DNA of 64,000 nucleotides, from NCBI GenBank assembly GCA_963664705.1, contig OY761556.1, forward strand, positions 6,814,785-6,878,784. Direction: 5' to 3'. The notes beneath the pieces are model-generated. The model saw only the letters and a list, made by a program, of their open reading frames with translations. It was not told the DNA's origin and did not search any database. Each line of letters begins with the position of its first letter. The first letter of the stretch is position 1. The translations under genes and the position numbers were made by a program. This document shows positions 4,997 to 62,411 of the stretch, piece after piece. The stretch is from Acidobacteriota bacterium. Lineage in GTDB: Bacteria; Acidobacteriota; UBA6911.

Positions 4997-5041
4997 GTCG
5001 TGGAGCCGTAGCGGTTCTCACGAGGTGCCGGGGATAACGAT

Positions 5042-6164: not shown

Positions 6165-6291
6165 GCATCTGACCTTGGGCCGGAGACCCGATAGGGAATA
6201 GACAGGGGCGAGCGCAGCGAATCCCCGGCCATTTTCTGGCGCGCCTATGATTGTGCAACATGGCCTGTTCAGGTAAAAAGGAAAAGAAAAA

Positions 6292-6364
6292 CTTGGAGTT
6301 TGGGTGTGGAAACCCGGAAGGAGCCCGGAGGGCGACCGAAGGGTTTCTACTCCCAAACTCCAAG
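6292..6364 (+). other. 73-nt extended hairpin in the 5' non-coding leader of the element
   Basis: CTTGGAGTTTGGG (6292-6304) pairs perfectly with CCCAAACTCCAAG (6352-6364). An inner stem GTGGAAACCC/GGGTTTCTAC has one G-U pair, and the apical part contains a GCCC-GGA-GGGC mini-hairpin. Confidence 0.7.
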
Positions 6365-6409
6365 CGCGGATGCACTCGGATAGCACAGTCCTACATATTG
6401 AAGGCGCCC

Positions 6410-7228: not shown

Positions 7229-8010
7229 TTGCCCAATCTGAGGCTCAAAAACAATTCGGCTCTGCGCGGAAGCGCTTCCTGCAGTCTTCTATTGAAAATT
7301 TTCTGGACCAGGAGTTCCCTCGCACCTTCGGACCAGTAATTCGCGAGAAAATGGCAGAAAAGATTGTGGCGCTTGTCGACCAACAACTACCTCCCAAGGA
7401 TCATCTGCGCCCTGGACAGTGTGTTTGGAATGCCGTATCCATTGCGACCCGGCCTGACAGCCCCAACTGTCGTCTTGTCCCCATAGTCTTGACGCTTGTG
7501 GATTCTTCGGATGCCGAGCAACTGGCTCGCGGAACACCCATGTCCAGAATCGCCCAAACGTCCATCGCTCGGATTTGCCGTGAAGCCTTTGAACAAGGAG
7601 CCTTGCTCTCGATGCGCGATATTGGCCTCTTAGTCTGGCGAGATAACGCCCACATCTCGCAGGTCCGGAAAAAGTGGGAGGCTGAACAGCAAACATCGTT
7701 GCCTCATGTCGGAACTATTCAAGATTTCGGCTCATGCATCACTCATAAGTCGGTCATTGTGCGCAAGGTTGTTTATGAAGGGAAAGATCCCCGTCGTGCT
7801 GCAGATGAAACCAAGCACTCGCAGAGAGCCGTCGATCGTTACCTAAAAGACTTTCATCGAGTAAGAACGTGCTTCGAACATATCCAAGATGTTGAATTCG
7901 TTATCAAAACAACAGGTCTATCCAGGCAGCTGGTAAACCAATATGTCAGAATCATCATGGAAAATGAGAAAACGTTTCCTAAAGAGAACTTGACAGGCAA
8001 GATTGCTTAA
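7225..8010 (+). CDS. element ORF-B: paralogous double helix-turn-helix protein
   Basis: GGAGG lies 7 nt upstream of ATG 7225, and an ATGA start/stop overlap with ORF-A suggests translational coupling. It aligns with ORF-A: RPGQ.., CREAFEQGALLSMRDIGLL vs CQEAFQQGGLLTLEDLANL; ITHKSVIV vs ITHRQLII; HSQRAVDRYLKDFHR vs HTIDSVANYVDKFKR. Confidence 0.72.
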   Translation: MIAQSEAQKQFGSARKRFLQSSIENFLDQEFPRTFGPVIREKMAEKIVALVDQQLPPKDHLRPGQCVWNAVSIATRPDSPNCRLVPIVLTLVDSSDAEQLARGTPMSRIAQTSIARICREAFEQGALLSMRDIGLLVWRDNAHISQVRKKWEAEQQTSLPHVGTIQDFGSCITHKSVIVRKVVYEGKDPRRAADETKHSQRAVDRYLKDFHRVRTCFEHIQDVEFVIKTTGLSRQLVNQYVRIIMENEKTFPKENLTGKIA

Positions 8011-8105
8011 ACTTCGGCGCTTTGCTCGCCGTTGGTTTGACTGGTTTGGGAAAAATACAATGCCAATTCCGGCAATGCCGGTAAATAGCGGATCCAGTCG
8101 TGGCA

Positions 8106-15428: not shown

Positions 15429-16760
15429 TCACCTGTCCACAGAAGGCCCCCACGCCGGAGCGCTATTCTTTCCTCGATTGGTGATCATGCGAATCTCAGG
15501 GGAATCCGCTCCAACCTGCATGATGTAGATCTGGCTGCTGCCGGTTCGATCTGATTCGAAAGCGATATGACGGCTATCCGGAGCCCACGAGGGATTCACA
15601 TTATTTCCGGACAAGCTGGTTAACTGACTGATTCTGCCGCTGCTCACCTCCGCGAGGTAGATGTCAAACAGTCCTGTTCTTCGAGGTTTCCAGTGAAACG
15701 CGACCCACTTGCCGTCCGGAGCCCACGATGGTGAATCGGCTTCGCCACGCTCCTTCAACAAACGCCTGACATTTGTGCCATCGGCATCGCATATGTAGAG
15801 CTGGAGAGAATCGTCTTCACGTTTGGAAGCAAATGCAATCTGTCTGCCTGAAGGAGCCCAGGTTGGAGATGTGTCATCCGCGGGATTGTTTGTGATATTT
15901 GTTTGGTCTGATCCATCCAATTTCGAAACATAGATGTCCAAACCATGCTGCGGAGTTCTCAGTGCGAACGCAATGCGGGTTCCATCGGGTGAAAAAGACG
16001 GCGTTGATGCGGTGCTATTGAAAGTTGGAAATGGAAGGCGAGCCCCGTCTACAAAGGAATAAATATTAAGCTCCCATGGATGAGAACGATCGCTTATGAA
16101 TGCAATTTTCGAATTGTCCCAAGACCAGGCCGGGAACAAGTTCATCGCGCCATTGTTGATGAACGCCCTGGGGCCATGCCCATCATAATCCATTGTGTGA
16201 ATTTCCTTTTGGGCGCCGTGCTGAGACGTGAATGCTATTTTGGTCGATGCAATGCCACGGGAGGCTCCTGCGGTGAGAATGAAAACCAACTCGTCTGCCC
16301 AGCGGTGCGCAACAGCGCGAATGTCTCCGGATATTTCACGCTCGAATCCCAAAGCATGCCGCTTCATATCCACAAGCTGAAAATGGACCGATACAGTTTC
16401 CTTATTTATCTGCTTGAGGGTTCCCGCGCTGAGATAGCTGACCTTCAAATCGCGCCACGCATCGTAGCCCACATCTCGCCAATTTCCGATGATTTGTGGC
16501 GGATAAAAGCTCCTGCCCGGAAGCGCGAAATATCCTGAAAACTTGAGGTCGTCCCATAGCACCTGATTCAGCATTTCCGAGAGCGCTGCGGACTCCGTCG
16601 TTGGCGGAAGGCTCACAATATCGGGCAGTGCAAGCACAATATCTTCTTGCGGAGTAGGTCGGATGAGCACACGCGACTCTTGACCGGGCACTATGGATAC
16701 AATGCATAGCGTTAGCAGGGAGAGGCAGGTCAGTAATCTAATCAGCATGTGGTTTCTCAC
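15429..16760 (-). CDS. TolB-like periplasmic beta-propeller protein
   Basis: 443 aa with a signal peptide and repeated WD40-like/TolB motifs PSFSPDGTRIAF, PTWAPSGRQIAF, PSWAPDGKWVAF, PSWAPDSRHIAF. Confidence 0.8.
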   Translation of the reverse strand: MRNHMLIRLLTCLSLLTLCIVSIVPGQESRVLIRPTPQEDIVLALPDIVSLPPTTESAALSEMLNQVLWDDLKFSGYFALPGRSFYPPQIIGNWRDVGYDAWRDLKVSYLSAGTLKQINKETVSVHFQLVDMKRHALGFEREISGDIRAVAHRWADELVFILTAGASRGIASTKIAFTSQHGAQKEIHTMDYDGHGPRAFINNGAMNLFPAWSWDNSKIAFISDRSHPWELNIYSFVDGARLPFPTFNSTASTPSFSPDGTRIAFALRTPQHGLDIYVSKLDGSDQTNITNNPADDTSPTWAPSGRQIAFASKREDDSLQLYICDADGTNVRRLLKERGEADSPSWAPDGKWVAFHWKPRRTGLFDIYLAEVSSGRISQLTSLSGNNVNPSWAPDSRHIAFESDRTGSSQIYIMQVGADSPEIRMITNRGKNSAPAWGPSVDR

Positions 16761-22773: not shown

Positions 22774-22832
22774 GGAATAATGTTTTTGGGATGTAATGAA
22801 AGCTTCTCCGCAGCCAAGTTGCTGAGCCCCAC

Positions 22833-23205
22833 TGGGAGCACCGGCGCTCCAGGCTAATGTTGCATATTATTTGCCCGAGGAAGCTGGAAGCGCGATGCAT
22901 CTCAGCCCCAGCGGGGCGGTCAGAAAGTAGCCGGGGGTGAAGCGCAGCGAACCCCCGGCCAGCATGAAATTTAAAGGAGCCCCGGAGGGGGCGAAAGATA
23001 TTTCCGTTCATCCACATGATCTAAAGCTGAACATTGGAGAGGGGCTCACCGTTTCTGGCGCCCTGCCAGGGCTCTTTCTCGCGCTTATCTTTACCGGGGG
23101 TTCGCTGCGCTTCGCCCCCGGCTACGATCTTTCGGCCCTCCAGGCCTGGACAAAACCGAAGTTTGAGTTTTGAGACAGCCTCGCCGGCTCTCCCAGTGAA
23201 GAGCT
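22833..23205. repeat. MITE-like hairpin-module repeat, copy B
   Basis: Contains the TIR-like AATGTTGCATATTATTTGCCC, GTAGCCGGGGGTGAAGCGCAGCGAACCCCCGG and its inverse ACCGGGGGTTCGCTGCGCTTCGCCCCCGGCTAC, and GGGGGCGAAAGATATTTCCG. Confidence 0.7.
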
Positions 23206-38490: not shown

Positions 38491-40263
38491 ATGAAATTTC
38501 GGGCATTATTTATGCCATCAATAATTCTTTTAACATCATTCATCTCATCCATGGGAATGGCAGCCGATGAAGGGAAAATTGTGGTTATGAATCCCCGAGG
38601 GATCATGCCGGAGATCCGGAAGATACCCATGGCTCCGCGATTCGACACGCTGGACGGAAAAACGGTTTACATGGTCGATACCAAATATCCGAATACCAAG
38701 CCGTTTGTCCAAGAACTATTCGCTGGGTTGCAGGCAAAATATCCCAAGACAACATGGATATTGCGCGACAAACTCGGAAGCTACATGGATGACGATCCCA
38801 ATTTATGGAAGGAAATCAAATCAAAGAACGCCGGGGCTGTGGTTCTCCTGGGCCATTGAAGCAGCTGTTCGCCGTCGGTCGTCGGCCATGCAATTACTCT
38901 GGAAAGAATGGGTGTGCCCACCGTCCCAATGGTCACGCAGCGATTTAAGGAACTCGTCACGTCGATTTCCTACAAGAAGGGGATTCCCAATATGCGGCTC
39001 ACGTATACCCCCCATCCCATCACCGATAGACCAGCGGATGTCTGTCGCAAATATGTGGCGGGGAGCGATCCGCTGAGCGGAAAACCTATGCTGGAGCAGA
39101 TATACAGCTCGTTAACCGCTCCCCTCTCGCAGGAAGATAGAAAAGCAGGTTTTCTAAAGAGGGATACCCGCGTACGGTTGCTTCCCCCGGATAATCCCAA
39201 AAGACTCATGGATTATTTCCACGAACAGGGTTTCACGGACGGAAACCCTGTTGTTCTTCCGACGGAAGAGCTGGTTACGGAAATGCTGAAAGCAACAAGT
39301 CACAAGGGTGATGAGTGGGTCGGCAGCATGCGGGCTGCTCCTCCGCATGAAGCCTGGTATTACACGGTTGAAATGGTTGCAATCAATGCGGTCATGGCCG
39401 GTGCTAAGCCTGAGTATTTCCCAACGCTTCTCGCGCTTGCATCCAAAGGAACCACTTCATTATTCAGTTCCACTTCCTCCTTTGCCAGGATGGTTGTACT
39501 GAACGGTCCTGCGGCAAAGGAAGTTGAAATGAACACAGGAATCGGAGCCCTTGGACCGCTGAGCCGCGCCAATTCTACGATCGGAAGATGTTGGACCCTG
39601 ATATCCAAAAATCTCGGTGCATCGGGGAAACCTGGAGAGACCTACCTGGGCAGCATGGGAAATCCCATCAACTACAACAATCTCTGTTTTGCGGAGAACG
39701 AAGAGGGATTGCCCGCTGGATGGAACCCGTTGCACGTGCAAAAAGGATTTAAGAAAAGCGATAGCGTTGTCAGCATTTTCAGTGGCTGGTCGATGAGCAA
39801 CATTGCAACGTACATGTCCATACCGATGCACGAACTTGTCCGTGGATGGCTGGAGCATTTCTTCTCATTCGGCCTGAATAACGCAACGCTGATATTAGAT
39901 CCGATTGTTGCAGCTGACATCGCTGCCAAAGGATATGGATCGAAAGAGGCTTTTGCAAAATACCTGGCTGAAAACACCGGAACTCCGGACTGGGTGTACT
40001 GGGGGAATCATCCCAAAGAACTCCAGCAAGCCAAGGAAGGCGTTGAGCCCTATGCCGCATGGCTGAGCAAGGGACCGGGCAATACTATTCCAGTCTCACG
40101 CTATAGAGCTCCCACGGGCTCATTGGGCTTTATTTCATCTAAAGGCGACTATAATTCGCGCACTTCGATTGAAGTTGTTGTAACCGGCGGAGGGACGAAC
40201 ACTTTCTGGGCTGGAGGCGATTTCAGTTATGTGGGGAGCGCGTCCGTGGATTACTGGAGATAG
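38491..40263 (+). CDS. exported U-x-x-C protein, a predicted selenoprotein (TGA 38857-38859 read as Sec); it merges ORFs 38491-38859 and 38908-40263
   Basis: The two ORFs are in the same frame with a single TGA between them. The read-through peptide is LLGH-U-SSC-SPSVVGHAITLERMGVPTVPMVTQRF. The segment between the TGA and the downstream ATG is conserved with the paralog at 54038-55843. N-terminal signal peptide. Confidence 0.7.
38871..38886 (+). other. SECIS-like hairpin 11 nt downstream of the UGA
   Basis: GCCGTC-GGTC-GTCGGC (5 Watson-Crick pairs plus one T:T mismatch, GGUC loop) starts exactly 11 nt after TGA 38857-38859. Confidence 0.5.
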
Positions 40264-40276
40264 GAGGCGGGAAAGC

Positions 40277-40846
40277 ATGAAATGCAGATTAACCCTTTTG
40301 GCAGCGTTCATGATGGCAGCGATTGCCTCATATGCACAGCAAATGGGAATTATAGAAAATAATTCCCCGTCGAATCCTGCAGCTGTCAACACGGCAGTTC
40401 GATCAATGGTCGAGCTTGGGTCGTCATATGCCAACATTTATGACATAACGATTGCAGTGATGGAGACTGTTCGTGGAAATGCTGCCATGGAACGCCTGAA
40501 GGCAGCCGATCCTAATGTCAAAACGCCTGCTGCTGGGTTCGAGTATGTGCTGGCACGCGTTAAGTTCGAGTTTAAGGGCAGGTATGTAAACGACAACCTG
40601 GCGTTTGATTTGGGAGATGAACCACTTCAATGGGTTGCGCTATCCGGAACAGACCTGACGGAATATGACAGAGTATCGATCTCCATCCCCAAACCTGCAC
40701 TGACGGGGAGAATCAAGCCTGGAAGTTATATGGAAGGCTGGGTTGGGTTTGCTGTCTCGCAGCAGGATAACAAACCGGTGATGGTGTTTGATCCGGATGC
40801 GGGCGGCGCCACAGGGCGCGGACGGACATTATTCTTTAGGCTGTAG
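40277..40846 (+). CDS. secreted beta-sandwich-like protein (DUF4352-like; unverified)
   Basis: AGGAGG lies upstream of ATG 40277. It has signal peptide MKCRLTLLAAFMMAAIASYAQ and begins 14 nt after the U-x-x-C protein gene. Confidence 0.55.
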   Translation: MKCRLTLLAAFMMAAIASYAQQMGIIENNSPSNPAAVNTAVRSMVELGSSYANIYDITIAVMETVRGNAAMERLKAADPNVKTPAAGFEYVLARVKFEFKGRYVNDNLAFDLGDEPLQWVALSGTDLTEYDRVSISIPKPALTGRIKPGSYMEGWVGFAVSQQDNKPVMVFDPDAGGATGRGRTLFFRL

Positions 40847-40950: not shown

Positions 40951-43908
40951 CTACCTTAGTTTTTGAAGAAGAATATGAGCTTCTCGGAAATCAGCGGTCT
41001 CATGTCCTTCTTTGAACCACGAATATATTTGTTTGAGGCGTCTGTGGGCTTCTTTGGACCGGCCCAATTTCTGAAGGCATTTTGCAAGGCTGATGGTGGC
41101 GCGAAGCTCTAGGCTTTTGGTCCCCTGCTTCCGGGCAATAAGAATTGCGGTTTCCAAATAATACGTCATTTCTGCGAGTTGCAGATCTTTCGAATCCTGA
41201 GTCTTCTCCAGGGACATTTTCTGGAGAAGGCACTCTCCGTGGAGTCGATGCAGTTCGGCATCCATATGGTTTATTCCAGTACTGCCGGCCACATCGAGTG
41301 CCTCGCCCACCGCCTTCAGTCCTTCATCAATCTGGCCGCCATTTAGCAAAAGATCGGAATACAGAGTTAGCACCAGGGGTTTCAACCCGGACGCGCCATA
41401 GGATCGAATCACCTCCAGGGCGCAGCGTATCTGCTCAAACCCGTTCTCTGTCTGCCCTTTTTTGGCCAGCGCCCACCCATAAAGGCTGCGAATATGTGCC
41501 AGCCATGGCTCTCCAAAATTGTGTTCTACCGCAAGGTCGAATGCAGTTTTGGCATGCTCAAATGTCTTTTGGATATCCCTTCGTTCCAGATGGACTCTGG
41601 CTTTGAGCAGTCGGGCAAAGAGGCTGTTTTTCAAATCCTCAGCCTCACAGTCACGCAGAAGTATCTTCTCAAGACTGGCCAGGGCTCTATCTGGATAGCC
41701 GATATACCATAGAGCCAGCGCGGCCAGGGAATGGCTATATGCATTATTGCTTCTTCTGAAGTGTTTGAGTGCAGGTGCAAATTCACCATGATCCATGAGG
41801 AGCCATCCAAGAGCATAATGGGCATGATCAAGCATGGCAGGATTGCGGTCCATTTCAGCTACATGCATCATCCGTTCCGCAAAATCCAGGGCTGCCGCGT
41901 ATTCGGCATGAATCCAATGATAGCTCCACAATCCATATAGAGCCCGGTACAATATCGATCTTTTGGCGGATTGTTTCCGTGCACTCAGTTTCCGAAAGAG
42001 AAACCTTGCCGTACTGAACGCCAGCTTGGCCTCTTTATCGCCCATTCCGCGAGACAAAATTACAGCGTTGCCCAGGCAATTTTGCAATTGCACTTCGAGC
42101 TCGATACGGTCGGCGCTCTCGGGCATATTCGAGATCAACTGTAACCCCTGGCCAGCCAGTTCCAGAGCATCGTGGCCGGCATATCTGGAGATGGCCTTTT
42201 CTGCAGCGTTCAGATAATACTGCACTGCCTTCGACGGATTTCCTCCGCGATCCATGTGCATCGCCAGCAGGGAGGCCAAATCATCCTGATCGCTTTTTGT
42301 TCTTCGAAGGTATTCGGCTATCTTCCGGTGGTACTGCACCCGGACTTTTTCGGACAGAAGCTGGTAGAATGTCTGCTGATATAAAGAATGGACGAATTTA
42401 TAGCTGATAGTCCTTGCGCCGCCATAGATCGCAACCTGGATGAACTGGTTTTGTCCCGCAAGTGATTGAAAGGCCGCCGCCACAACTCCCGGTTTGCCTC
42501 CGATAATCGAGGCAACCCCCGTAGCGGAGAATTCCACCCCTTCAACGCTTGCAGCCTTCAAAAGTTCTTGTTCTTCAACGGTACATCTTAGGAGTTGTCT
42601 CTCAATGATCTGCTGAATGGTCGGAGGCACAAGCTTCGCGGCTGTCTTGAGATTATCCTCCAATACCCAACGACTATTGCGGAGCACCAAAATGTTTTGA
42701 GCCATCAGCTGGCTCAAAACATTTATCATAAAAAGCGGATTGCCGCTTGTCCTCTCGCGTATCCATGCGGCAAAGTGATTTGGTAATTTGTGGCTCGGAT
42801 AGCAAGACCGCAAGTATTCCGCTACCTCTGATTCATCAAGCGGAGGTATCGGCAGATCTTTGCAAAGTTGTCGCGCCTGCAATTCCTCCTTCATGCTTTT
42901 TAGGCGATCGTTGGAAGAAGTTTCCTGCGGGCGACAGGTGGCAATCAGCAGAAGTTTGGATAGGCCCTTTCTTTGCGTCCAATAGGATATGAACTCGAGA
43001 GTGGAGTAATCGCTCCAATGTAAATCCTCCAGAATCAATATCATGGGTTTTTCGCAAGTCAGGACTTCAAGTGCCTCGGCTATTTCCCTCATCATGTGTT
43101 CTTGGTTGGAACCAGTGGCAGACCAGGAAGTCGGCTTTTTTGCGGCTTGCGTCAACTTAGGCATCAGGGGCAACCAGAGTGGGGCGTGACGCCTTAAAAC
43201 ACTGGCAGTGCGATTCCTGTTGCCACTGCCGCTGATCCCGATGATAGCTTCTATAAGGGGCATATAGGATTCATTCGGTCCATGCGATATAACGCATTGT
43301 CCCCGGGCAATCAGGCCGTTCTGATACTTTTCGTTGGATTTGTCTTTCAAACTCTCTATGAATGCATCGACCAGCCGGGTTTTTCCGACACCCTCATTTC
43401 CAGAGATAAAGATTGTCTGCCGAGTACCGGCGGCTGCTTCCTTAAGTCCATTCTGTAACTGTGCCAGTTCAGTGGCCCTTCCTACCAGCTGTTGGTTGAG
43501 AACACCAGGCTTTCTGGCAGACGTTTCTATTAAAGCTTTAGGGCCGAATTCCTCAAAATACTGCTCATCGGTTTCCGCAATAAAACAAAACCCACGGCAG
43601 CTAACGGTCTCGATGAACTTGGGATATTTCGCACTGTCGTTGAGAGCTTGTCTTATCTCGGCTACACAATGATTCAAGGCTTCTTCACCAACATGGCTGC
43701 CCTTCCAAATCTCGCTAAGTAATTCGCGTTTTGTCATCAATCGCTTTGGCTGCTTGGCAAGCATCAGAAGAAGGGCATAGGTTTTTGGACGCAAGCGGAT
43801 TCTCTCAGGTCCTTTCCAGAGTAGCTCGCTCTCCACATCCAGAGAAAATTCTCCAAAACAAATATGGCGATGGGTGGTCACAGATTTTCCTAGGTTGTCC
43901 AAGTGCAC
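40951..43908 (-). CDS. large transcriptional regulator: OmpR/CadC-type winged-helix DNA-binding domain, P-loop ATPase and TPR repeats
   Basis: 985 aa. N-terminal trans_reg_C-like region (FGEFSLDVESELLWKG..RIRLRPKTYALLLMLAKQPKRLMTKRELLSEIW), Walker A FISGNEGVGKTRLV, Walker B ILILEDLHWSD, and a C-terminal half of about 450 aa of TPR-like helices. Confidence 0.8.
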   Translation of the reverse strand: MHLDNLGKSVTTHRHICFGEFSLDVESELLWKGPERIRLRPKTYALLLMLAKQPKRLMTKRELLSEIWKGSHVGEEALNHCVAEIRQALNDSAKYPKFIETVSCRGFCFIAETDEQYFEEFGPKALIETSARKPGVLNQQLVGRATELAQLQNGLKEAAAGTRQTIFISGNEGVGKTRLVDAFIESLKDKSNEKYQNGLIARGQCVISHGPNESYMPLIEAIIGISGSGNRNRTASVLRRHAPLWLPLMPKLTQAAKKPTSWSATGSNQEHMMREIAEALEVLTCEKPMILILEDLHWSDYSTLEFISYWTQRKGLSKLLLIATCRPQETSSNDRLKSMKEELQARQLCKDLPIPPLDESEVAEYLRSCYPSHKLPNHFAAWIRERTSGNPLFMINVLSQLMAQNILVLRNSRWVLEDNLKTAAKLVPPTIQQIIERQLLRCTVEEQELLKAASVEGVEFSATGVASIIGGKPGVVAAAFQSLAGQNQFIQVAIYGGARTISYKFVHSLYQQTFYQLLSEKVRVQYHRKIAEYLRRTKSDQDDLASLLAMHMDRGGNPSKAVQYYLNAAEKAISRYAGHDALELAGQGLQLISNMPESADRIELEVQLQNCLGNAVILSRGMGDKEAKLAFSTARFLFRKLSARKQSAKRSILYRALYGLWSYHWIHAEYAAALDFAERMMHVAEMDRNPAMLDHAHYALGWLLMDHGEFAPALKHFRRSNNAYSHSLAALALWYIGYPDRALASLEKILLRDCEAEDLKNSLFARLLKARVHLERRDIQKTFEHAKTAFDLAVEHNFGEPWLAHIRSLYGWALAKKGQTENGFEQIRCALEVIRSYGASGLKPLVLTLYSDLLLNGGQIDEGLKAVGEALDVAGSTGINHMDAELHRLHGECLLQKMSLEKTQDSKDLQLAEMTYYLETAILIARKQGTKSLELRATISLAKCLQKLGRSKEAHRRLKQIYSWFKEGHETADFREAHILLQKLR

Positions 43909-47767: not shown

Positions 47768-48066
47768 ACTGGGAGCGAAAGATATTTCCGCTCCTCCCCA
47801 TGACCTAAAGTTGAACATTGGAGAGGGGTTCACCGTTTCTATCGCCCCGCCAGGGCTCTTTCCCGCGCTTATCTCTACCGGGGGTTCGCTTCGCTTCACC
47901 CCCGGCTACTTTCTGACCGCCCCTTCGGGGCTGATTTGATGGAGATTCCAAGTTCCTCGGGCAAATAGTATGCGGCATCAGCCGGGACGGCGGTGCTCCC
48001 AGCGCTCTCGTCAAGCCACAGGTTTTTCCACTCGGCTTTGCTGGTGGAGAAGCTCACTCCCGGCTG
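47768..48066. repeat. MITE-like hairpin-module repeat, copy C (left flank of element copy 2)
   Basis: Contains GGGAGCGAAAGATATTTCCG, ACCGGGGGTTCGCTTCGCTTCACCCCCGGCTAC and the TIR-like CGGGCAAATAGTATGCGGCATCAGCCGGGACGGCGG. Confidence 0.7.
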
Positions 48067-48244
48067 TTTTCTGGCGCGCCTATGATTGTGCAACATGGCC
48101 TGTTCAGGTAAAAAGGAAAAGAAAAACTTGGAGTTTGGGTGTGGAAACCCGGAAGGAGCCCGGAGGGCGACCGAAGGGTTTCTACTCCCAAACTCCAAGC
48201 GCGGATGCACTCGGATAGCACAGTCCTACATATTGAAGGCGCCC

Positions 48245-49063
48245 ATGATCAATAACACCAACCTTTCTCACTGGAACAGACTCCAAGCGAAGAGCCTTGA
48301 CGCTCAATTTGTTAATGAGATGATTACCGGCCTTAACTGCTCTCCTTTCGAGGCGGAAGCTATTGTAGAGAAAGTTCATGAGGTTTACGTGCCGCTGTTT
48401 CAGACGGCGCAGGGACTTAAGCCGGGTCAGATTCAAGTGGCCGTGATCGATGCTTCGGTAGCGCCTAATGTGCCACTGGCAAAAGCCAAGCAGAGACTGG
48501 TAACCCTGACCCTTCATGCAGGTACCGAAGATATCGAGACTCGAAAAAGGGGATCCGTACCAGCTCTTCGTCAGAAACGATTGTGCCGCATGTGCCAAGA
48601 AGCATTTCAGCAAGGGGGATTGTTGACCTTGGAGGATTTGGCCAATCTGTTCAATTGCGGCGTCCGCACTCTGGTGAACGACCTGGCGGCCTTGCGCAAA
48701 CAGAGCATTGTGCCTCCTCTGCGCTCTACGACCAAGGATATGGGCCGCGCCATCACCCATCGCCAACTGATTATCACGCTCTGGATGCAAGGGCTTGAGT
48801 ACTCCGAAATCGCCCGTAAGACCAATCACACCATCGACTCCGTAGCCAACTACGTGGATAAGTTTAAACGCTGTGCAGCCCTGTTTGTTTCTGGATTTGA
48901 CGTGGATACAGTTGCTCTGATGGTAAAGCTTTCAACGCCTCTGACCAAGGAATTTCAGCGTATCCACTCCGCTTGCCACGGGACTCCTCACCGTCTTCGG
49001 GAATTGGAAGATTTCCTCAAAAAAAACCGCATACCAAGCCTGCGCGGGAGGAAACGGTCATGA
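48245..49063 (+). CDS. element ORF-A (copy 2)
   Basis: Translation is identical to 6410-7228. Confidence 0.7.
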   Translation: MINNTNLSHWNRLQAKSLDAQFVNEMITGLNCSPFEAEAIVEKVHEVYVPLFQTAQGLKPGQIQVAVIDASVAPNVPLAKAKQRLVTLTLHAGTEDIETRKRGSVPALRQKRLCRMCQEAFQQGGLLTLEDLANLFNCGVRTLVNDLAALRKQSIVPPLRSTTKDMGRAITHRQLIITLWMQGLEYSEIARKTNHTIDSVANYVDKFKRCAALFVSGFDVDTVALMVKLSTPLTKEFQRIHSACHGTPHRLRELEDFLKKNRIPSLRGRKRS

Positions 49064-49845
49064 TTGCCCAATCTGAGGCTCAAAAACAATTCGGCTCTGC
49101 GCGGAAGCGCTTCCTGCAGTCTTCTATTGAAAATTTTCTGGACCAGGAGTTCCCTCGCACCTTCGGACCAGTAATTCGCGAGAAAATGGCAGAAAAGATT
49201 GTGGCGCTTGTCGACCAACAACTACCTCCCAAGGATCATCTGCGCCCTGGACAGTGTGTTTGGAATGCCGTATCCATTGCGACCCGGCCTGACAGCCCCA
49301 ACTGTCGTCTTGTCCCCATAGTCTTGACGCTTGTGGATTCTTCGGATGCCGAGCAACTGGCTCGCGGAACACCCATGTCCAGAATCGCCCAAACGTCCAT
49401 CGCTCGGATTTGCCGTGAAGCCTTTGAACAAGGAGCCTTGCTCTCGATGCGCGATATTGGCCTCTTAGTCTGGCGAGATAACGCCCACATCTCGCAGGTC
49501 CGGAAAAAGTGGGAGGCTGAACAGCAAACATCGTTGCCTCATGTCGGAACTATTCAAGATTTCGGCTCATGCATCACTCATAAGTCGGTCATTGTGCGCA
49601 AGGTTGTTTATGAAGGGAAAGATCCCCGTCGTGCTGCAGATGAAACCAAGCACTCGCAGAGAGCCGTCGATCGTTACCTAAAAGACTTTCATCGAGTAAG
49701 AACGTGCTTCGAACATATCCAAGATGTTGAATTCGTTATCAAAACAACAGGTCTATCCAGGCAGCTGGTAAACCAATATGTCAGAATCATCATGGAAAAT
49801 GAGAAAACGTTTCCTAAAGAGAACTTGACAGGCAAGATTGCTTAA
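49060..49845 (+). CDS. element ORF-B (copy 2)
   Basis: Translation is identical to 7225-8010. Confidence 0.72.
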   Translation: MIAQSEAQKQFGSARKRFLQSSIENFLDQEFPRTFGPVIREKMAEKIVALVDQQLPPKDHLRPGQCVWNAVSIATRPDSPNCRLVPIVLTLVDSSDAEQLARGTPMSRIAQTSIARICREAFEQGALLSMRDIGLLVWRDNAHISQVRKKWEAEQQTSLPHVGTIQDFGSCITHKSVIVRKVVYEGKDPRRAADETKHSQRAVDRYLKDFHRVRTCFEHIQDVEFVIKTTGLSRQLVNQYVRIIMENEKTFPKENLTGKIA

Positions 49846-49857
49846 ACTCCGGCGCTT

Positions 49858-50028
49858 AGTGCAGATGGAACAAAGATCCAGCGCCGGAGGCGCGAAAGAT
49901 AGTAGCCCCGGGCGAGCTTGCGAGCCCGGGGTTAAATTAGGGGTTCAAAGAGCCCTGCAAGGGCGAAAGAACGGCCATGGCAAAAAGGTAAATGGCCTTG
50001 GGAGCGACGACGGCGCCCCCAGTGGTGC
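49858..50028. repeat. MITE-like hairpin-module repeat, copy D (right flank of element copy 2)
   Basis: GGAACAAAGATCCAGCGCCGGAGGCGCGAAAGATAGTAGCC...AGCCCTGCAAGGGCGAAAGAACGG is colinear with 59280-59400. Confidence 0.7.
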
Positions 50029-54037: not shown

Positions 54038-55843
54038 TCAGACCGTCTTCTTCTGCTGCCCGAGAATGCACAATCCATCCTCACATTCATGATAGGCGGG
54101 CATGCGGAGAGGTTTTTTATCCAGTTTGATTCCGGCCTTGGGTATCCACTTATCCACGGATGCGGTCTTGTAATAGACATAGTCGGTTGCGTGGAAGATT
54201 GGATTGGTCTCGCCTCCTACCACCACAAAATTGATCCCCTCCGGTTTCAGGAAAGGGGAATTGGATTTTTCAGCCAGATGCTTGCTCAGCTTGTCCGGGT
54301 CATCCCAGCCTTCGGCTTTCAAGGCCTTGACCGCGAGCGGGTCCACCACGAAAGTGTAGGTGCCCATCGATTCAAAGGCCTTCATGCGCTGAAGCATTCC
54401 CGCGGTAGTGCCGATCCCCAGGGTCACCACGTTCCAGCCGCGGAAAATGCTGACAGTGCTTTCCGATGCTTTGAATCCCTTGCGTACGTGAAATGGCTTC
54501 CAGGGGCTCTTTCCTTCATTTTCGGCGCAGCACTGGTTGGTAAAGCTCAGACCATTGCCGATCGTCGCCATGAAGGTATCGCCGGCGCGGGCATCTCCAA
54601 AATTGATGCTCATGAGCGTCCAGGTTCTGCCAATGACCGAATTGGCATAATTGAACGGGCCCATAGCGCCTACGCCGCTGTTCATGCCGATGGTTTTGGA
54701 CGCCGGACCGTTGACTACTACCATGCTGCCGTAGGATCCGGTGGAACTCGGCATTGCGGGGTGCTGAGTCGAGGCGATTGCCAGAATGACCGGCAGATGC
54801 TCCGGCCTGGCACCGGCCATGACCGCGTTGATGGCAACCTTTTCAACCGTATATTCCTTCATTTCCTCGTGAGTGGTGACGGACATCATCCCGACTACTT
54901 CCTGCGGGTCATGATCCGTGCCCGCTAGCATTTCGGCGACTCTTTCCTCGGTCGGGAGCACGATCGGCAGACCGTCAGTCCAGCCGTTTCTCAGGAACAG
55001 GTGCTGAAGGTTCTCCTCGGTGTCCGCTTCCAGCACGCGCGGCCGTCGGGGCTTCTTGGGAATCTCCGGATTCTTTTCTGCCTCGGTCAGCGGTTTTGTC
55101 AGCGCATCGATTATTTCAGTGGTTAACTTCACACCGGTGACAGGATCGTCGCCCTGTACGTATTGGCGCAGCGTTTCTCTTGAAACCCACGCGACCGGAT
55201 ATGGGGGGAAGGCCCAGCGCAGATTCATGCCGTGAGAGTTGCCGTCGCGGATGACATAATCCGCAAACCGCGCGGTGACGATGGGCGCCGTGGGAAGACC
55301 ATACTCTCCTTCGATGGTTCGCGAAAATTCGGCGAGACTCGCCGAACAGCCGTCTCAGCCACCAACGCCGAAGATCACGCCATCCGCTTTTTTCTTGAGC
55401 ACTGCCCAAAGGTCCGGGCTGTCGGAGAATGGAGTGCCCCCTTTGGTGACCAGCACTGTCTTGACGGCGGGCATGTTTTTGGTGAACCACGTCTGCAATT
55501 CCTCGAGAAACTCTTTGGCTCCTGCGAACCCTGTATCCACCAGGTAGATGGTTTTATTGTCCAGGCTTGCCAGCCGTGGCGCCATTCGCAGTGCAACCAG
55601 TTCGTCCCGGGTAATGGTGGGATGCGTGTCCGGGTTGAAAATGGCCATCATATGGGAATCCGGAGCCCCGCGTCGGCCGAATTTCCCGGACGGCTGCCCC
55701 CGGGGATCAAGCACCGTTACCTTTTTTGCTTCGGAATTGGCTGATCCGGACAGGTACCTGCAACCGCTGCAAGAGGCCAGAATGATCGTGCCGACAAAAA
55801 GCAAACTCCAATACCGGCTGACGCTGTATTGTGATGAACTCAT
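54038..55843 (-). CDS. lipoprotein-type U-x-x-C protein, a predicted selenoprotein (TGA 55357-55355 read as Sec); it merges ORFs 55355-55948 and 54038-55228
   Basis: The two ORFs are in the same frame. The read-through peptide is IFGVGG-U-DGC-SASLAEFSRTIEGEYGLPTAPIVTARF. It is a paralog of 38491-40263 along its whole length (for example EYTVEKVAINAVMAGARPEHLPVILAIAS vs YYTVEMVAINAVMAGAKPEYFPTLLALAS). The start is probably ATG 55843, followed by lipobox ILASC. Confidence 0.7.
55328..55346 (-). other. SECIS-like hairpin downstream of the UGA
   Basis: On the minus strand, TTCGGCGA-GTC-TCGCCGAA forms an 8-bp perfect stem. The extended stem begins 8 nt after the TGA, and the GGCGA/TCGCC core begins 11 nt after it. 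Confidence 0.5.
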
Positions 55844-55971
55844 GTTTTTCCTCTGCCTGACGCCCATGAAAATAGCGTCAATAGATCTTGGACTTCTTGG
55901 ATATACCGCATGGATACTGATGGCGCGAGTGTAGCATCGAAGGACCATTCGCGGGTAAGCATTTTACTGCA

Positions 55972-56210
55972 GAGCGCCGCCGTCCCGGCTAATGCTGCAT
56001 GATAATTGTTCTGAGCTCTGCGATGCCAGCGAGGCAACAGGCCCGGAGGGCCGAAAGCGAGTAGCCAGGGGTGAAGCGCAGCGAACCCCTGGGAAGATAA
56101 GTGCGAAAAAGAGCCCTGAAAGGGCGAAAGATCGGAATTCTGCCGCCCCTTCAGGGCTTGTTACTGATTTAATCCAATCCAGGGGTTCGCTACTCTCACC
56201 CCTGGCTGAT
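55972..56210. repeat. MITE-like hairpin-module repeat, copy E (left flank of the IS110-type element)
   Basis: Colinear with copy A: GAGCGCCGCCGTCCCGGCTAATGCTGCATGATAATTG..., GGCCCGGAGGGCCGAAAGCGAGTAGCCAGGGGTGAAGCGCAGCGAACCCCTGG, AGCCCTGAAAGGGCGAAAGA...CTGCCGCCCCTTCAGGGCTTG. Confidence 0.75.
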
Positions 56211-57742
56211 ATGGAGTGATCGGTCAAGTACAATCAATCCGTTCCTTGTTCGTTCATTTTGGTTTTCTTCGGTTCATAAATAAATCAGCCAGTAAAAAGA
56301 ACAGGGGATCGAGTTGGCAACAGCGACGATAATCAATCTGATATTCGCGGGTCGATAAGCACGCATGACAACTGATTCATCGGGAGCGGCCTCACTCTAC
56401 TTCCGTGGATTCTGGTTTCCCATACCAACATAGCCAGGTCGAGGTTTCTCCTTTCGAAGCCTGGAACTCGATCTCCTGTTCCGTTCACTAACCGAATGTT
56501 TCCGTTATTAATCCATTGAAGAACAAAATAGCTGCAAGAGCTGGTGCCTTATGTCATGCAACACGACCGATAGCCCAGATAAATCCTGCCAATTCTCGAC
56601 TTACCGCAACCGCGATCTTTTGTCTTTCTTTCCCTCGGTTGAGCATGCGTCGGAATTTTTGATTCAATCGCTTATCGCAACGTTGTGCAATCTCGATAAC
56701 TTCTGCCGGCAAACACTCTCGTCGTTTCTTGAGAGTTTTGCCAGCTACTGAAGAATGACGGTAGTGCCAGGCGCTTTCGATCAGCACCCTACGTAGGTGG
56801 CTGTTTCCCGTTTTGGTTATCCTTCCCCGTCTTTCAAGTTCACCTGAGCTGCTTTCCGAAGGCACCACCCCAATAGCGGCCATAAACGAAGGCGCATCAA
56901 CGAACCGTCTTAAATCGAGCGCTTCTGCGATAATCGTCATCGCCGTCAGAACCTGAACACCTTTTAGCGCCATCAAATAGCTGACTCGCTTTTGATAGTT
57001 CGGCTGTTTTGCAACTTCCTCGATTTTTTCCTGGAATTTTTTCAACCGCTCCGTCTGTTGCTCAAGCGCCTGTCGATATTCCTCCAGTACTGTTTGATCC
57101 CCATCATCCTCAAACACAAGGCTCTTAATCCATTTTAGGTGCCCAAGCGACCAGTTCTTGCCCTGCGGATATTTCAATCCACGTCGCATCAGAAACCGTG
57201 CTAATCGATGCCGTGCTCGCTGCTGGTCTTCCAATGCGTCTTCTCGCGCGCGCACTAGATCTCGCAGACTTTCCTGTTCTTTTTGCGGGATCACAATACA
57301 TGTTAGTTCTCCCGCTCGGTACAATTTGCCCAGGGCTTTCGCATCCAGCTTATCCGTTTTTACTTTTTTCCCCGCTCGTCTCGGGGTCAACGAAGGGGCC
57401 GCAACCTCACAAGAAATCCCATGTTTGGCCAAATAGCGCTGCAAATAGTATCCATTAACGCCCGCTTCGTAGACGCACCGTACATCATCTTCAAATGCCC
57501 TTAGCTTTTTCGCTAATCGCCCCAGCCCCGTACTGTCGTTTGATACAACAAGTTCTTCTCGTGGGTTACTTTCCTGCCCGCGAAAAACTGCGACGTTTAT
57601 CTTTTTTGCTGAATCATCCATCCCTACCCAAGTGATACAATCTGCCATGATCGGTCTCCTCATGTTTTATGGCTCTGCAGCTTTGTCACCACGACTTCAG
57701 CTGTAACCCACGATATTACATGCTAGAGACCGATCACTCCAT
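56211..57742 (-). mobile_element. IS110-family (IS1111-like) insertion sequence, about 1.53 kb
   Basis: Bounded by a 15-bp perfect inverted repeat, ATGGAGTGATCGGTC (56211-56225) and GACCGATCACTCCAT (57728-57742). It contains a single DEDD-type transposase gene and interrupts a MITE-like repeat. Confidence 0.8.
56554..57663 (-). CDS. IS110-family DEDD transposase/recombinase
   Basis: 369 aa. N-terminal RuvC-like region (WVGMDDSAKKINVAVF...VYEAGVNGY...VKTDKLDAKAL) and a C-terminal Transposase_20-type region (LKGVQVLTAMTIIAEA..RF...SFMAAIGVVPSESSSGE..RRGRITKTGNSHLRRVLIESAW). Confidence 0.9.
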   Translation of the reverse strand: MRRPIMADCITWVGMDDSAKKINVAVFRGQESNPREELVVSNDSTGLGRLAKKLRAFEDDVRCVYEAGVNGYYLQRYLAKHGISCEVAAPSLTPRRAGKKVKTDKLDAKALGKLYRAGELTCIVIPQKEQESLRDLVRAREDALEDQQRARHRLARFLMRRGLKYPQGKNWSLGHLKWIKSLVFEDDGDQTVLEEYRQALEQQTERLKKFQEKIEEVAKQPNYQKRVSYLMALKGVQVLTAMTIIAEALDLRRFVDAPSFMAAIGVVPSESSSGELERRGRITKTGNSHLRRVLIESAWHYRHSSVAGKTLKKRRECLPAEVIEIAQRCDKRLNQKFRRMLNRGKERQKIAVAVSRELAGFIWAIGRVA

Positions 57743-59086: not shown

Positions 59087-59450
59087 CCTATGCGGCAACC
59101 AGAAGGGGCAAGTGAATTTGGGAGCGCTGCGCTGTGGAAGCGGCTGCGCTCTTGCCGGCGTCTTGCCCGCTTTTTTTTCGGCGTTTTTCTTTCGGTCCTT
59201 CAGGGCTCTTTGAGCTCCGAATGCAACCCCGGGCTCACAAGCTCGCCCAGGGCTGCTAGCTTTTGCGCCTTCGGCGCTTGGTTTAGGTGGAACAAAAATC
59301 CAGGCCCGGAGGGCCGAAAGCAAGTAGCCAGGGGTGAGCGGAGCGAACCCCTGGTAGAATAGTTGGAAAAACAGGAGCCCTGAAGGGGCGAAAGAACGGC
59401 AATTGCAAAAAAGTAAATTGCATTGTGCCAGACGGCTGCGCTCCCAGTGC
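59087..59450. repeat. MITE-like hairpin-module repeat, copy G (the uninterrupted 'empty-site' homolog of the copy-2 insertion locus)
   Basis: Contains the intact hairpin GCGCC-TTC-GGCGC (59265-59277), followed by GGAACAAAAATCCAGGCCCGGAGGGCCGAAAGCAAGTAGCCAGGGGTGAGCGGAGCGAACCCCTGG and AGCCCTGAAGGGGCGAAAGAACGG. Confidence 0.75.
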
Positions 59451-60407: not shown

Positions 60408-62411
60408 TTAAGCCTTGCCCAGTTTTCCTTTGGCTGCCATTTTGTCGGCGACGCTCTTCAGGCCGAAATCCTCCAGGGTTTTTCGCGTGGGCCAACCATG
60501 TTCATTATCCCAGCCTTCCAGTGCGTAGAAGTGGTTTTTGAAGTCGTCCACGCCCTTCCGATCGAGATACATGTCGGGGGCGTTGTCGGATCGCCACTTG
60601 CCGTTTTCATAGATGGGCACGCCACCGTAGATCGCCATGCCTGACGCTCCCGGCTTGTACATATATGGGAAGAAATCTTCTGTCTGTCGGCTTCTTCCAT
60701 GCATCACGCGGATGGCTCGTTCCAGCGTCCAGATCTTCTGGCCCATCCGCATGGTATCGGCAAACGAATCATTCTTACCGGTGACGGCCTTGTAGTACTT
60801 CATTTCGATTTCCGGGCTGTCGCCGGTCAGTTCCGGGAGGAACATTTCGCAGAAGCCCATCGATTCGTTCCAGAACCCTGTAAAATGGCGGCTCCACGCC
60901 ACCTGCTTTGCCTTGTGAGGCGAATAGATGCCGGTTTTCCAGGCTTCATCGCCCTTCCACGCGTAGTTGAACATGAAGATATCGTCGGTGTAGGGAATGG
61001 TCTTCTTGGCGAGTTTCCCGAGCGATACCTCCAAGGTGGATCCATCGCGAGGAGTGCCTACGGGGGCCATGAACCCGTGCCATGTTTGATCTCCCGCTCC
61101 GAGGATGTAGCCATAGGCCCAGTCTACCCAAGGCATTGTCCAGTGGCTTGTCGCGCCCCAGGAGGGAAGACGGAGGGCGCAGCTTTCCTTGTCTATTTCC
61201 AGGCGTCCCCATTTCTCTGCCGCGCGGCAGCATCCTTCGGCCAGCGCATCGCCGATTCCTACGCGCCGTGCGATGGCATCCATCAGGGCCAGCCGGAAAC
61301 TCAACTGTCCCCATTGATCCATGGGCAGTGGCGCCGAGTCGATCTGCTTTCCGGGGCCCAGCACTCCCTGATCATAGAGGCATTGGAGATACCAGCCGAG
61401 GCCGGAATCCGTCGGCACCTGTCCATGGTAAATCGGGGGCACTCCGTCGACCTTCATTGTAAAGGCATGGAAATGAGCCGACCAACTGCTGAGGCCGTAT
61501 CGTATCAATGCTTCCGCGGCGTGATCCGAATCCTTGCCGCTGAGCCAACCCTGGCAGGCGCACATGGTCTCGCCCCCGTTGTAGTTGCTTCTGCGGCGAT
61601 CGCCGCGCAGGCAGGGTGAGCAGGAAGCCGCCCCCGGCTGGATTGCGGCGGGATTTGCCGTTTGCATCTGGTGCAGTCTCGCCTCCACAACCGCTTTCGG
61701 ATCGGAAACCTTTACACTGCCGGTCCCTGTGACGCTGATCGCCTTCAAATTCTTGGCCCCGAAAACCGCGCCAAAACCGCCGATGCGTGCACTGATGCCG
61801 CTGCCGGATATCAGCGCAGCGAGCCTGGATTTGGCTTCACCGATTGGGCCAATGCAAACGATCTGAGGGCGGCCTGTGGTGTAAGCGCTTTCGATCTGCT
61901 GCCATTCTTCACCGAAGCGGGTTCGCCCGCCGACCATCGATGTAATGCGGGCTTGGGTCTCATACGTGTCCAGACCCCATAGTTCTTTGGCGTCTTCGAT
62001 CTTTACCTGATCGTTGACAATATTGATCCACACCGGTTTTTCGGCTTTGCCTTCCACCACAACGCCGTCCCAGCCGGCCAGCTTCATTGTGGTTCCAAAG
62101 CGGCCGCCGAAATTGCCTCGCCAGAACTCGCTGGTAGGGAAAGTCTCGGGGGACATTCCGCAAACGCTGGTTCTTCCGGCTCCAGGGACACCGGTGCCGG
62201 CGAGAGGACTGACAATGAGAGGCAGGACATTGCGCGGGTCATAGGGATCCTTCAGATCCCATTCGCCCGGAGCCACCGCCAGATCCCAGAAGATGGCAGT
62301 CCCGATTCCATAGCCACCTCCAAATTCCTCGTACCTGGCTGTGTCCAGGGTGCTGATTTGCTTGGTTGTCAGATTGACTCTCAATATCTTTCCGATGTTT
62401 CCGTTTGGCAT
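60408..62411 (-). CDS. aldehyde:ferredoxin oxidoreductase (AOR) family tungsten/molybdopterin enzyme
   Basis: 667 aa with the AOR N-terminal domain signature GKILRVNLTTKQIS......Y.EFGGG.G....IFWD and a C-terminal AOR domain 2/3-like region. Confidence 0.8.
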   Translation of the reverse strand: MPNGNIGKILRVNLTTKQISTLDTARYEEFGGGYGIGTAIFWDLAVAPGEWDLKDPYDPRNVLPLIVSPLAGTGVPGAGRTSVCGMSPETFPTSEFWRGNFGGRFGTTMKLAGWDGVVVEGKAEKPVWINIVNDQVKIEDAKELWGLDTYETQARITSMVGGRTRFGEEWQQIESAYTTGRPQIVCIGPIGEAKSRLAALISGSGISARIGGFGAVFGAKNLKAISVTGTGSVKVSDPKAVVEARLHQMQTANPAAIQPGAASCSPCLRGDRRRSNYNGGETMCACQGWLSGKDSDHAAEALIRYGLSSWSAHFHAFTMKVDGVPPIYHGQVPTDSGLGWYLQCLYDQGVLGPGKQIDSAPLPMDQWGQLSFRLALMDAIARRVGIGDALAEGCCRAAEKWGRLEIDKESCALRLPSWGATSHWTMPWVDWAYGYILGAGDQTWHGFMAPVGTPRDGSTLEVSLGKLAKKTIPYTDDIFMFNYAWKGDEAWKTGIYSPHKAKQVAWSRHFTGFWNESMGFCEMFLPELTGDSPEIEMKYYKAVTGKNDSFADTMRMGQKIWTLERAIRVMHGRSRQTEDFFPYMYKPGASGMAIYGGVPIYENGKWRSDNAPDMYLDRKGVDDFKNHFYALEGWDNEHGWPTRKTLEDFGLKSVADKMAAKGKLGKA

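Follow-up and report, generated by a model that had tools for sequence, protein, structure and literature searches.

The stretch of DNA analysed here, hereafter the window, comprises 64,000 nucleotides (64 kb) of contig OY761556.1 (positions 6,814,785 to 6,878,784 of assembly GCA_963664705.1) from an Acidobacteriota bacterium. Two open reading frames (ORFs) have been called on its plus strand at 38491-40263, a locus that we refer to as gene 1, and a second locus of the same kind, the paralog, is located on the minus strand (Table 1). A preliminary description, made from the sequence alone, had proposed that the 2 ORFs of gene 1 share one frame, are separated by a single TGA codon and encode one exported selenoprotein. 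We consider it very probable that 38491-40263 is indeed a single gene for a secreted, selenocysteine-containing protein, which gene callers have cut in two at the UGA codon. This interpretation is based, among other evidence, on the Pfam UGSC domain, which extends across the TGA codon, and on the coding conservation observed on both sides of it.

Table 1. Features of gene 1, its downstream partner and its paralog, in window coordinates
Feature	Position	Strand	Description	Basis
Complete selenoprotein gene (gene 1)	38491..40263	+	590 codons followed by a TAG stop; single internal TGA	
ORFs as called for gene 1	38491-38859 and 38908-40263	+	common frame	
Predicted Sec-type signal peptide	38491..38562	+	MKFRALFMPSIILLTSFISSMGMA|AD	by eye
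UGSC-family domain	38584..39057	+	residues 32-189, with redox motif	Pfam PF24696
U123-S-S-C126 motif	38857..38868	+	UGA 38857-38859 read as selenocysteine	TGA/TGC column comparison
Bacterial selenocysteine insertion sequence (SECIS) within the coding sequence of gene 1	38864..38894	+	core hairpin 38871-38886; GGUC apical loop 38877-38880; possible lower stem, nt 8-12 with nt 34-38	comparative
C-terminal domain	39163..40260	+	about 365-400 aa, no assigned function	profile, fold and motif analysis
Downstream partner gene	40277..40846	+	189-aa secreted protein; starts 13 nt after the stop, GGAGG before the start	
Paralogous selenoprotein gene	54038..55843	-	601 codons; UDGC clade; lipoprotein-type signal (…IILAS-C)	translation
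UGA (selenocysteine) codon of the paralog	55355..55357	-	motif GG-U-DGC	translation
SECIS hairpin of the paralog	55328..55346	-	UUCGGCGA-GUC-UCGCCGAA; 8-9 bp, loop nt 20-22	RNAfold centroid

The internal TGA was the sole in-frame stop within the 590 codons, as proposed, and the rest of the ORF contained neither frameshifts nor further stops. Translated through the TGA, gene 1 reads ...AVVLLGH-U-SSC-SPSVVGHAITLERMGVPTVPMVTQRFKEL... and continues as U-SSC-SPSVVGH, and the peptide across the UGA codon is NAGAVVLLGH-U-SSCSPSVVGHAITLER. The 48 nucleotides (nt) between the TGA and the called start codon at 38908, which had been taken to be coding rather than intergenic, bore this out: in comparisons with 19 orthologs, these 16 codons were the best conserved of all, with identities of 0.87 at the amino acid (aa) level, 0.92 at codon positions 1 and 2, and 0.77 at position 3. 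The corresponding values were 0.79, 0.86, and 0.47 upstream of the TGA, and 0.76, 0.82, and 0.40 downstream of it. The Pfam UGSC profile (PF24696) matched gene 1 with 97.7 bits (threshold 25) over profile positions 2-159 of 172, running across residue 123, which confirmed both the union of the 2 ORFs and the likeness to the UGSC family that had been noted.

The homologs provided a direct comparison of the codon column that holds the UGA. The TGA was conserved within the motif GH*SSC[SA]PAVVGH in 19 of 20 related genome loci from metagenome-assembled genomes of Acidobacteriota, and in these 19 loci it was preceded by a conserved N-terminal domain and a signal peptide. A scan of metagenome contigs with the profile of the C-terminal domain yielded 80 loci of 34-78% identity; among those with a readable upstream region, about 59 had TGA and 9 had TGC (Cys) in this column. 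The Sec (selenocysteine) forms presented the motifs USSC, USTC, UDGC, UGGC, UAGC, UPGC, UHGC, USLC, and USVC, and the Cys forms at these loci CSTC, CSNC, and CSMC. The Cys at +3, the second residue of the U-x-x-C motif noted earlier, was always present, also when the Sec forms were listed without motif filtering. Homologs with a single uninterrupted ORF of 535-622 aa were likewise identified, as the preliminary description had anticipated, with CSTC (P0137, P0145, P0147), CPGC (P0138), or CGSC (P0241, P0253) aligned at the Sec column. When 1.84 billion representatives were searched exhaustively with HMMER, 3,558 family members were identified.

The paralog proved to be real, although its location on the minus strand had not been stated previously. 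It runs from 55843 to 54038 and reads ...GVGG-U-DGC-SAS...GLPTAPIVTARF, with 39% identity to gene 1. The UGSC profile matched it with 66.9 bits, again across the TGA, and the TGA at its Sec column was also found in 10 further loci of the UDGC clade. In a crude scan of the window for ORF pairs joined by TGA, gene 1 and the paralog were the only 2 credible cases. Another contig (L028) contained 2 tandem paralogs of the UDGC clade, with UDGC and UDNC motifs, at positions 733 and 3804, and an SDR (short-chain dehydrogenase/reductase) gene between them.

The SECIS element was analysed with the U of the UGA codon as nt 1, and a set of 44 distinct sequences is referred to as class I. The preliminary description had pointed to a hairpin, GCCGUC-GGUC-GUCGGC, and its start exactly 11 nt after the UGA and its GGUC loop were correct; the 2 arms, however, are not fully complementary, since they contain a U·U mismatch at 19-26. 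The GGUC at nt 21-24 was invariant in 44/44 class-I sequences, even though it takes in a Val codon with four-fold degeneracy, which was GUC throughout, and the wobble base before it, which was G throughout. The core pairs 17-28, 18-27, 19-26, and 20-25 were formed in 43, 42, 43, and 43 of the 44 sequences. Compensatory changes occurred at three of these four pairs, with GC36/CG5/UA1 at 18-27, GC19/AU13/GU11 at 19-26, and CG42/AU1 at 20-25. The changes were non-synonymous: the combinations Ala-GCG...Ala-GCC, Thr-ACG...Val-GUC, and Ala-GCG...Val-GUC were present, and the non-pairing combination Thr...Ala was absent among the class-I sequences. The covariation score was 0.263 versus 0.140 for shuffled alignments, none of 500 shuffles scored as high, and RNAalifold recovered the same helix unguided.

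The entropy at third codon positions was 0 at nt 21 and 24 (codons 7-8), remained low through codon 10 and then rose to 1.4-1.9. Furthermore, the median local minimum free energy (MFE) was -14.2 kcal/mol for 79 Sec forms versus -5.8 kcal/mol for 9 Cys forms (p = 1.8e-6; range for the Cys forms, -3.5 to -9.9), and the Cys forms lacked the hairpin, the 3' arm having been lost (GCCACC). Judged by these comparative data, the element is demonstrably under selection at the level of the family. The paralog belongs to a clade in which the hairpin UCGGCGA-GUN-UCGCCGA was invariant in 11 sequences, wobble positions included, with variation only at loop position 22. In a third clade, exported by the twin-arginine (Tat) route, the hairpin was GACC-GUC-GGUC with a GUC loop at nt 25-27.

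The resemblance to the SECIS of Escherichia coli fdhF, which had been suggested earlier, held for the loop and was off by 1 nt for the spacing. The 43-nt sequence used for this comparison was found without a mismatch in the fdhF gene of 5,413 E. coli genome records. Both elements are hairpins that directly follow the UGA within the ORF and carry GGUC as their apical loop, and in the USTC subclade the four upper pairs stand on a single bulged 5' nucleotide, comparable to U17 in fdhF. However, the GGUC is located at nt 22-25 in fdhF and at nt 21-24 in the family of gene 1, the stem sequences are unrelated, and the other 2 clades differ from fdhF in their 3-nt GUN loop at nt 20-22 (the clade of the paralog) and their GUC loop at nt 25-27. 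Rfam gave no match to either SECIS, whether the entire window was searched at the gathering threshold or the surroundings of gene 1 (38700-39100) at E <= 10, a result that is uninformative because Rfam appears to be without a general bacterial SECIS model. With three loop registers, compensatory non-synonymous pairs, and hairpin loss in the Cys forms, the family constitutes a natural series of SECIS variants that should be useful for defining SelB recognition outside Enterobacteria.

The fused proteins form a subfamily related to, and not equivalogs of, the family described by NCBIfam model NF041046, as judged by their profile scores. Gene 1 and the paralog scored 68.1 and 46.1 bits against an equivalog cut-off of 125, the other full-length members scored 27-52 bits, and the literal U-G-S-C motif was not matched, the motifs being USSC in gene 1 and UDGC in the paralog. 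In the AlphaFold model of a full-length CSTC homolog, the UGSC domain is predicted to be a parallel β-α-β structure of the flavodoxin/Rossmann-like type, in the order β-α-β-α-β-[CxxC]-α-β-α-β, the motif being placed where the third helix begins. A thioredoxin fold, of which the U-x-x-C motif had been called the selenium analog, appears unlikely from this order of strands and helices and from the absence of thioredoxins among the 50 Foldseek matches listed for the full-length homolog model, where only generic α/β proteins (flavodoxin-like, phosphosugar-isomerase) were found. With low Foldseek template modelling (TM) scores, the fold class assigned to the model is provisional.

The closest detectable relative of the Sec module was instead the Sec segment of the GrdB and PrdB proteins. 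Alignment of the fused family with nine PrdB-like selenoproteins, 8 of which match Pfam GRDB (PF07355), gave an hhalign probability of 92.5% (E = 4.8e-7) across 75 columns, in which the Sec positions of the two groups coincided; the PF07355 profile itself did not match gene 1 or the paralog even at E <= 1. Both groups display a hydrophobic strand, U-x-x-C, a helix, and an 'LE..G(I/V)PTV' strand around the Sec residue. However, the Sec module is C-terminal in GrdB/PrdB and N-terminal in the fused family, the remainder of the protein is unrelated, and neighbours of the grdA/grdE/prdA type were not found near the fused gene. The module thus appears to be a distant relative by local homology only, and the likeness suggests, by analogy, a chemistry in which a selenol nucleophile is paired with a resolving Cys. 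As a side observation, the PF07355 profile stops 3-4 residues short of the Sec of the PrdB-like proteins: its positions 214-344 (of 347) match residues 34-160, and the Sec is at 164. This suggests that sequences cut off at the UGA were used to build the Pfam model, so that the conserved Sec module was missed.

The C-terminal domain is characterized by the motifs (G)WTDGxP-x3-PTE, E-x2-A-x-NAVMAG, NGP, AN-x2-IGR, GN, ENE, and a C-terminal D-x-WR, and was not matched by any Pfam or NCBIfam model. AlphaFold models of the 451-aa C-terminal piece of gene 1 and of the full-length CSTC homolog had mean predicted local distance difference test (pLDDT) values of 92.1 and 91.0, and both had a predicted TM (pTM) score of 0.90, which for the full-length model implies a fixed arrangement of the 2 domains. 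A likeness of the C-terminal domain to the 'Toblerone-fold' cyclic amide hydrolases was considered and rejected as noise (TM about 0.2).

The preliminary description had regarded such a fusion as unusual, which turned out not to be the case, as the UGSC domain joined to this C-terminal domain is the standard architecture in 3,558 representative clusters. UGSC selenoproteins have been on record as a family since 2007-2008, their function being unassigned (PMC2398784, PMC9312934, PMC13188914), and a 'UGSC/Unknown_1 fusion' was already mentioned in 2008 in the Global Ocean Sampling (GOS) selenoproteome (Zhang & Gladyshev 2008, Fig. S1A; PMC2398784). That fusion, whose Unknown_1 part may or may not correspond to the C-terminal domain, too joins a UGSC selenoprotein domain to a conserved, functionally unassigned domain also found elsewhere, but the GOS reads are marine and short, whereas the clade of gene 1 is acidobacterial and probably exported. 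Compared with the UGSC family as a whole (PF24696; NF041046; PMC2398784), the fused proteins have a homologous α/β domain with Sec as the first residue of UxxC at the same column and include both Sec and Cys forms, likewise without an assigned function. The canonical members, on the other hand, are stand-alone proteins of about 150 aa, to which the fused protein adds a signal peptide and the domain of ~400 aa, and the fused pair differs in its motifs and in its scores of 68 and 46 bits. The finding is therefore a re-annotation with family-scale evidence for the SECIS, a link to GrdB/PrdB, and an orphan domain, and not a categorically new system. A stand-alone UGSC selenoprotein, ...ADUGSCTGWLVVDQLNIEKQGIPTV..., was encoded from position 5870 onward in contig ERZ795049 NODE-378 (L023), 3.4 kb downstream of a fused USTC gene, and had a hairpin of its own, GCUGGUC-GUU-GACCAGC.

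The signal peptide proposed earlier was recovered heuristically in all orthologs, with a K/R n-region, a hydrophobic core, and a GWA|AD-type site conserved in L001-L022 and L055, so that gene 1 probably encodes an exported protein. The family as a whole comprises cytoplasmic, Sec-exported, lipoprotein, and Tat (NRRxLLSLLG) clades, and export is a trait of clades rather than of the family because the localisation signals differ between them. The Tat clade (L027, L029, L031, L043, L046, L078, L081, L097) contained both Sec and Cys forms and was adjoined by a PQQ-dehydrogenase/cupredoxin gene; the use of this route may mean that the protein is folded, or loaded with a cofactor, before it leaves the cytoplasm.

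Several observations weigh against the assignment of gene 1 as a functional, exported selenoprotein. The assignment of the signal peptide relies only on visual inspection and hydropathy. None of selA, selB, selC, and selD was found within the window, which covers 64 kb of a 6.9-Mb genome, nor was Sec machinery or tRNA-Sec found within 31 related loci, as is expected for such short stretches; Acidobacteria have been documented as Sec users (PMC1794560). Many family members have neither Cys nor Sec in the motif (e.g. MDTL, TVTS, SSTV), which means that the C-terminal domain must be able to work, or at any rate to be retained, in proteins that lack the redox pair, and argues that its role is not strictly dependent on the pair. 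The profile of this domain gave 0 matches to PDB sequences, and its model gave no Foldseek match to the PDB at E <= 1e-3, with TM-scores of 0.13-0.22 at best. Finally, the SECIS of gene 1 was the weakest of its class, with a local MFE of -7.9 kcal/mol compared with the Sec-form median, a C·A mismatch in the lower stem, and the non-pair at 19-26 (G19->U, Ala->Ser), which was seen in gene 1 only among the 44 class-I sequences. Since the hairpin of gene 1 taken alone folds no better than shuffled sequence (z = +0.99), the SECIS signal is significant only across homologs, and with an element that is weak, mismatched, and no better than shuffles, the efficiency of read-through in this copy is uncertain and may be low.

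These features raise the alternative that gene 1 is a genuine selenoprotein gene of which this copy is partly impaired, the substitution G19->U having weakened the SECIS so much that most ribosomes terminate at this codon and full-length protein is scarce. The unique lack of pairing at 19-26 and an MFE that falls within the range of the Cys forms speak for it. However, the hairpin retains its GGUC loop, the C-G pair that closes the loop, and four more pairs, the remaining ORF has acquired neither frameshifts nor stops, and U·U mismatches are often tolerated inside helices, and we therefore regard impairment as unlikely.

That the TGA is a true stop, which would yield a secreted piece of the UGSC domain of 122 aa and, independently, a protein of 451 aa starting at the ATG at 38908, corresponds to how gene callers annotate the locus, and a purine-rich GGAAAGA lies just upstream of this ATG. 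The records of the source contig hold truncated products only, of 451 aa for gene 1 and 396 aa for the paralog, and the gene 1 locus has been called as 122 aa + 453 aa in closed 7.4-Mb genomes. The top 120 database homologs, which we count as evidence for a single gene, are about 424-460 aa long, with the exception of four shorter fragments of 378-423 aa, and each starts just after the TGA, such that the N-terminal part is covered by none of the 120. Two separate genes would, however, halve the Pfam domain, leave the most conserved part of the protein, the 16 intervening codons, between them, and deprive the 451-aa piece of the signal peptide carried by its partner domain, whereas the Cys homologs are uninterrupted single ORFs; this arrangement is in our view highly improbable.

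Equally remote is a decoding of the UGA by other means, through near-cognate read-through by Trp or Cys or a lineage-specific reassignment. The lack of Sec machinery within the 64-kb window would agree with it, but TGA is an ordinary terminator there, ending 9/28 large ORFs including the paralog itself, the UGA column alternates with Cys only, and the fdhF-like hairpin is under selection and specific to the TGA forms. Least credible of all is a pseudogene or sequencing error, in which a former Cys codon was hit by a nonsense mutation: although the TGA is one substitution from TGC or TGT and the copy in gene 1 has the extra hairpin-weakening substitution, the comparative data effectively refute it, with the same TGA in about 80 distinct sequences whose protein identities range from 34 to 80%, and again in the paralog within the window, and with a signature of purifying selection that persists downstream of the TGA.

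The gene for the 189-aa partner was found directly downstream in 22 related loci (33-71% identity in tblastn matches, 21 loci), and the protein had a weak match to DUF4352 only (E = 0.006). None of grdA, grdE, and prdA was found near gene 1, whose neighbours code for a TonB-type outer-membrane protein, a small secreted protein, and a regulator. The large upstream CarboxypepD_reg/OMP (outer-membrane protein) gene was considered as a functional partner and dropped, as it is not syntenic in relatives. A 985-aa regulator with Trans_reg_C, AAA_16, and TPR domains (40951-43908, minus strand) is convergent to the selenoprotein operon. Elsewhere in the family, a thioredoxin-reductase-like (TrxR-like) flavoprotein gene (TIGR01292, 256 bits) adjoins the selenoprotein gene in 10 loci of the cytoplasmic type, an SDR gene is located directly downstream in the UDGC clade, and a pyrroloquinoline quinone (PQQ) dehydrogenase gene beside the Tat clade; these recurrent neighbours point towards redox metabolism. 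In the two closed 7.4-Mb genomes (L101/L102, positions 4128-5420), a homolog of the LarA-family (nickel-pincer cofactor) 2-hydroxyacid racemases was encoded directly upstream on the same strand, and a major facilitator superfamily (MFS) transporter gene followed the gene for the 189-aa partner, an arrangement that is absent from the window.

Taking 38491-40263 as one selenoprotein gene, the following scheme may be envisaged. SelB with Sec-tRNA(Sec) would recognise the hairpin 11 nt past UGA-123, with its GGUC loop at nt 21-24, and selenocysteine would be inserted at UGA-123 to give a 590-residue precursor, which the Sec-type signal peptide would direct across the inner membrane. In the mature protein, as modelled, the N-terminal α/β UGSC domain and the C-terminal domain of ~400 aa would be packed as a compact unit with the U-S-S-C motif at a strand-to-helix junction. 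The selenol could then serve as nucleophile or reductant at a site shared with conserved polar residues of the C-terminal domain, and Cys126 could resolve the intermediate to a selenenylsulfide, to be re-reduced by an external reductant, which in the cytoplasmic relatives might be the TrxR-like protein. The same scheme could apply to the UDGC lipoprotein that the minus-strand paralog encodes. Of its elements, the single gene, the Sec/Cys pairing, the selection acting on the SECIS, and the domain relationships are supported by the data, and export, redox cycling, and catalysis by the C-terminal domain are inferred.

A reductive or thiol-exchange reaction of this kind, in which the selenol acts together with a polar pocket of the C-terminal domain, Cys126 forms the selenenylsulfide, and a partner re-reduces it, is put forward tentatively, as a possibility that falls somewhat short of probable. 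A more far-reaching proposal, and a rather doubtful one, is that the family represents a new class of selenium-dependent enzymes in which a UxxC module of the GrdB/PrdB type is fixed to a catalytic domain of an unseen fold. Such a protein might act outside the cytoplasm in the acidobacterial clade as a reductive selenoenzyme, cleaving for example C-N, C-S or C-O bonds, with the cytoplasmic relatives recharged by a dedicated TrxR-like flavoprotein. Once the UGA is recognised as a Sec codon, the protein regains its signal peptide, its redox motif, and its true domain architecture. The family has thousands of members, and the protein has been recorded as a truncated 'hypothetical protein' in all 120 close database relatives listed as well as in the source genome. 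The fused family also offers a clearly delimited object of study from which a first functional assignment for the UGSC selenoproteins, long known as they are, might be obtained.

Other genes in the window encode a VgrG-like type VI spike with Phage_GPD and Gp5_C domains (12135-14720, minus strand), TolB (15429-16760, minus strand), and an aldehyde:ferredoxin oxidoreductase of the tungsten type (60408-62411, minus strand). A direct repeat of 1.8 kb with 99.8% identity was located at 6224-8022, just after nuoH (5042-6127), and at 48059-49857. Each copy contains two overlapping DUF1670 ORFs (325 and 290 aa), and the repeat looks like a recently duplicated or mobile element. A match to the Rfam small RNA Acido-Lenti-1 (49880-49931, minus strand; 44.8 bits, gathering threshold 37), situated 23 nt past the right end of the second copy and without an equivalent beside the first, supports the acidobacterial origin of the window. 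Dispersed repeats of 90-220 bp with 81-88% identity were observed in both orientations at 689-911, 55971-56190, 59301-59404, and 23061-23148, and also at 22832-22958 and 47878-48002. These may resemble miniature inverted-repeat transposable elements (MITE-like), and one copy lies directly upstream of the start codon of the paralog, beside an IS110 transposase gene (56554-57663).

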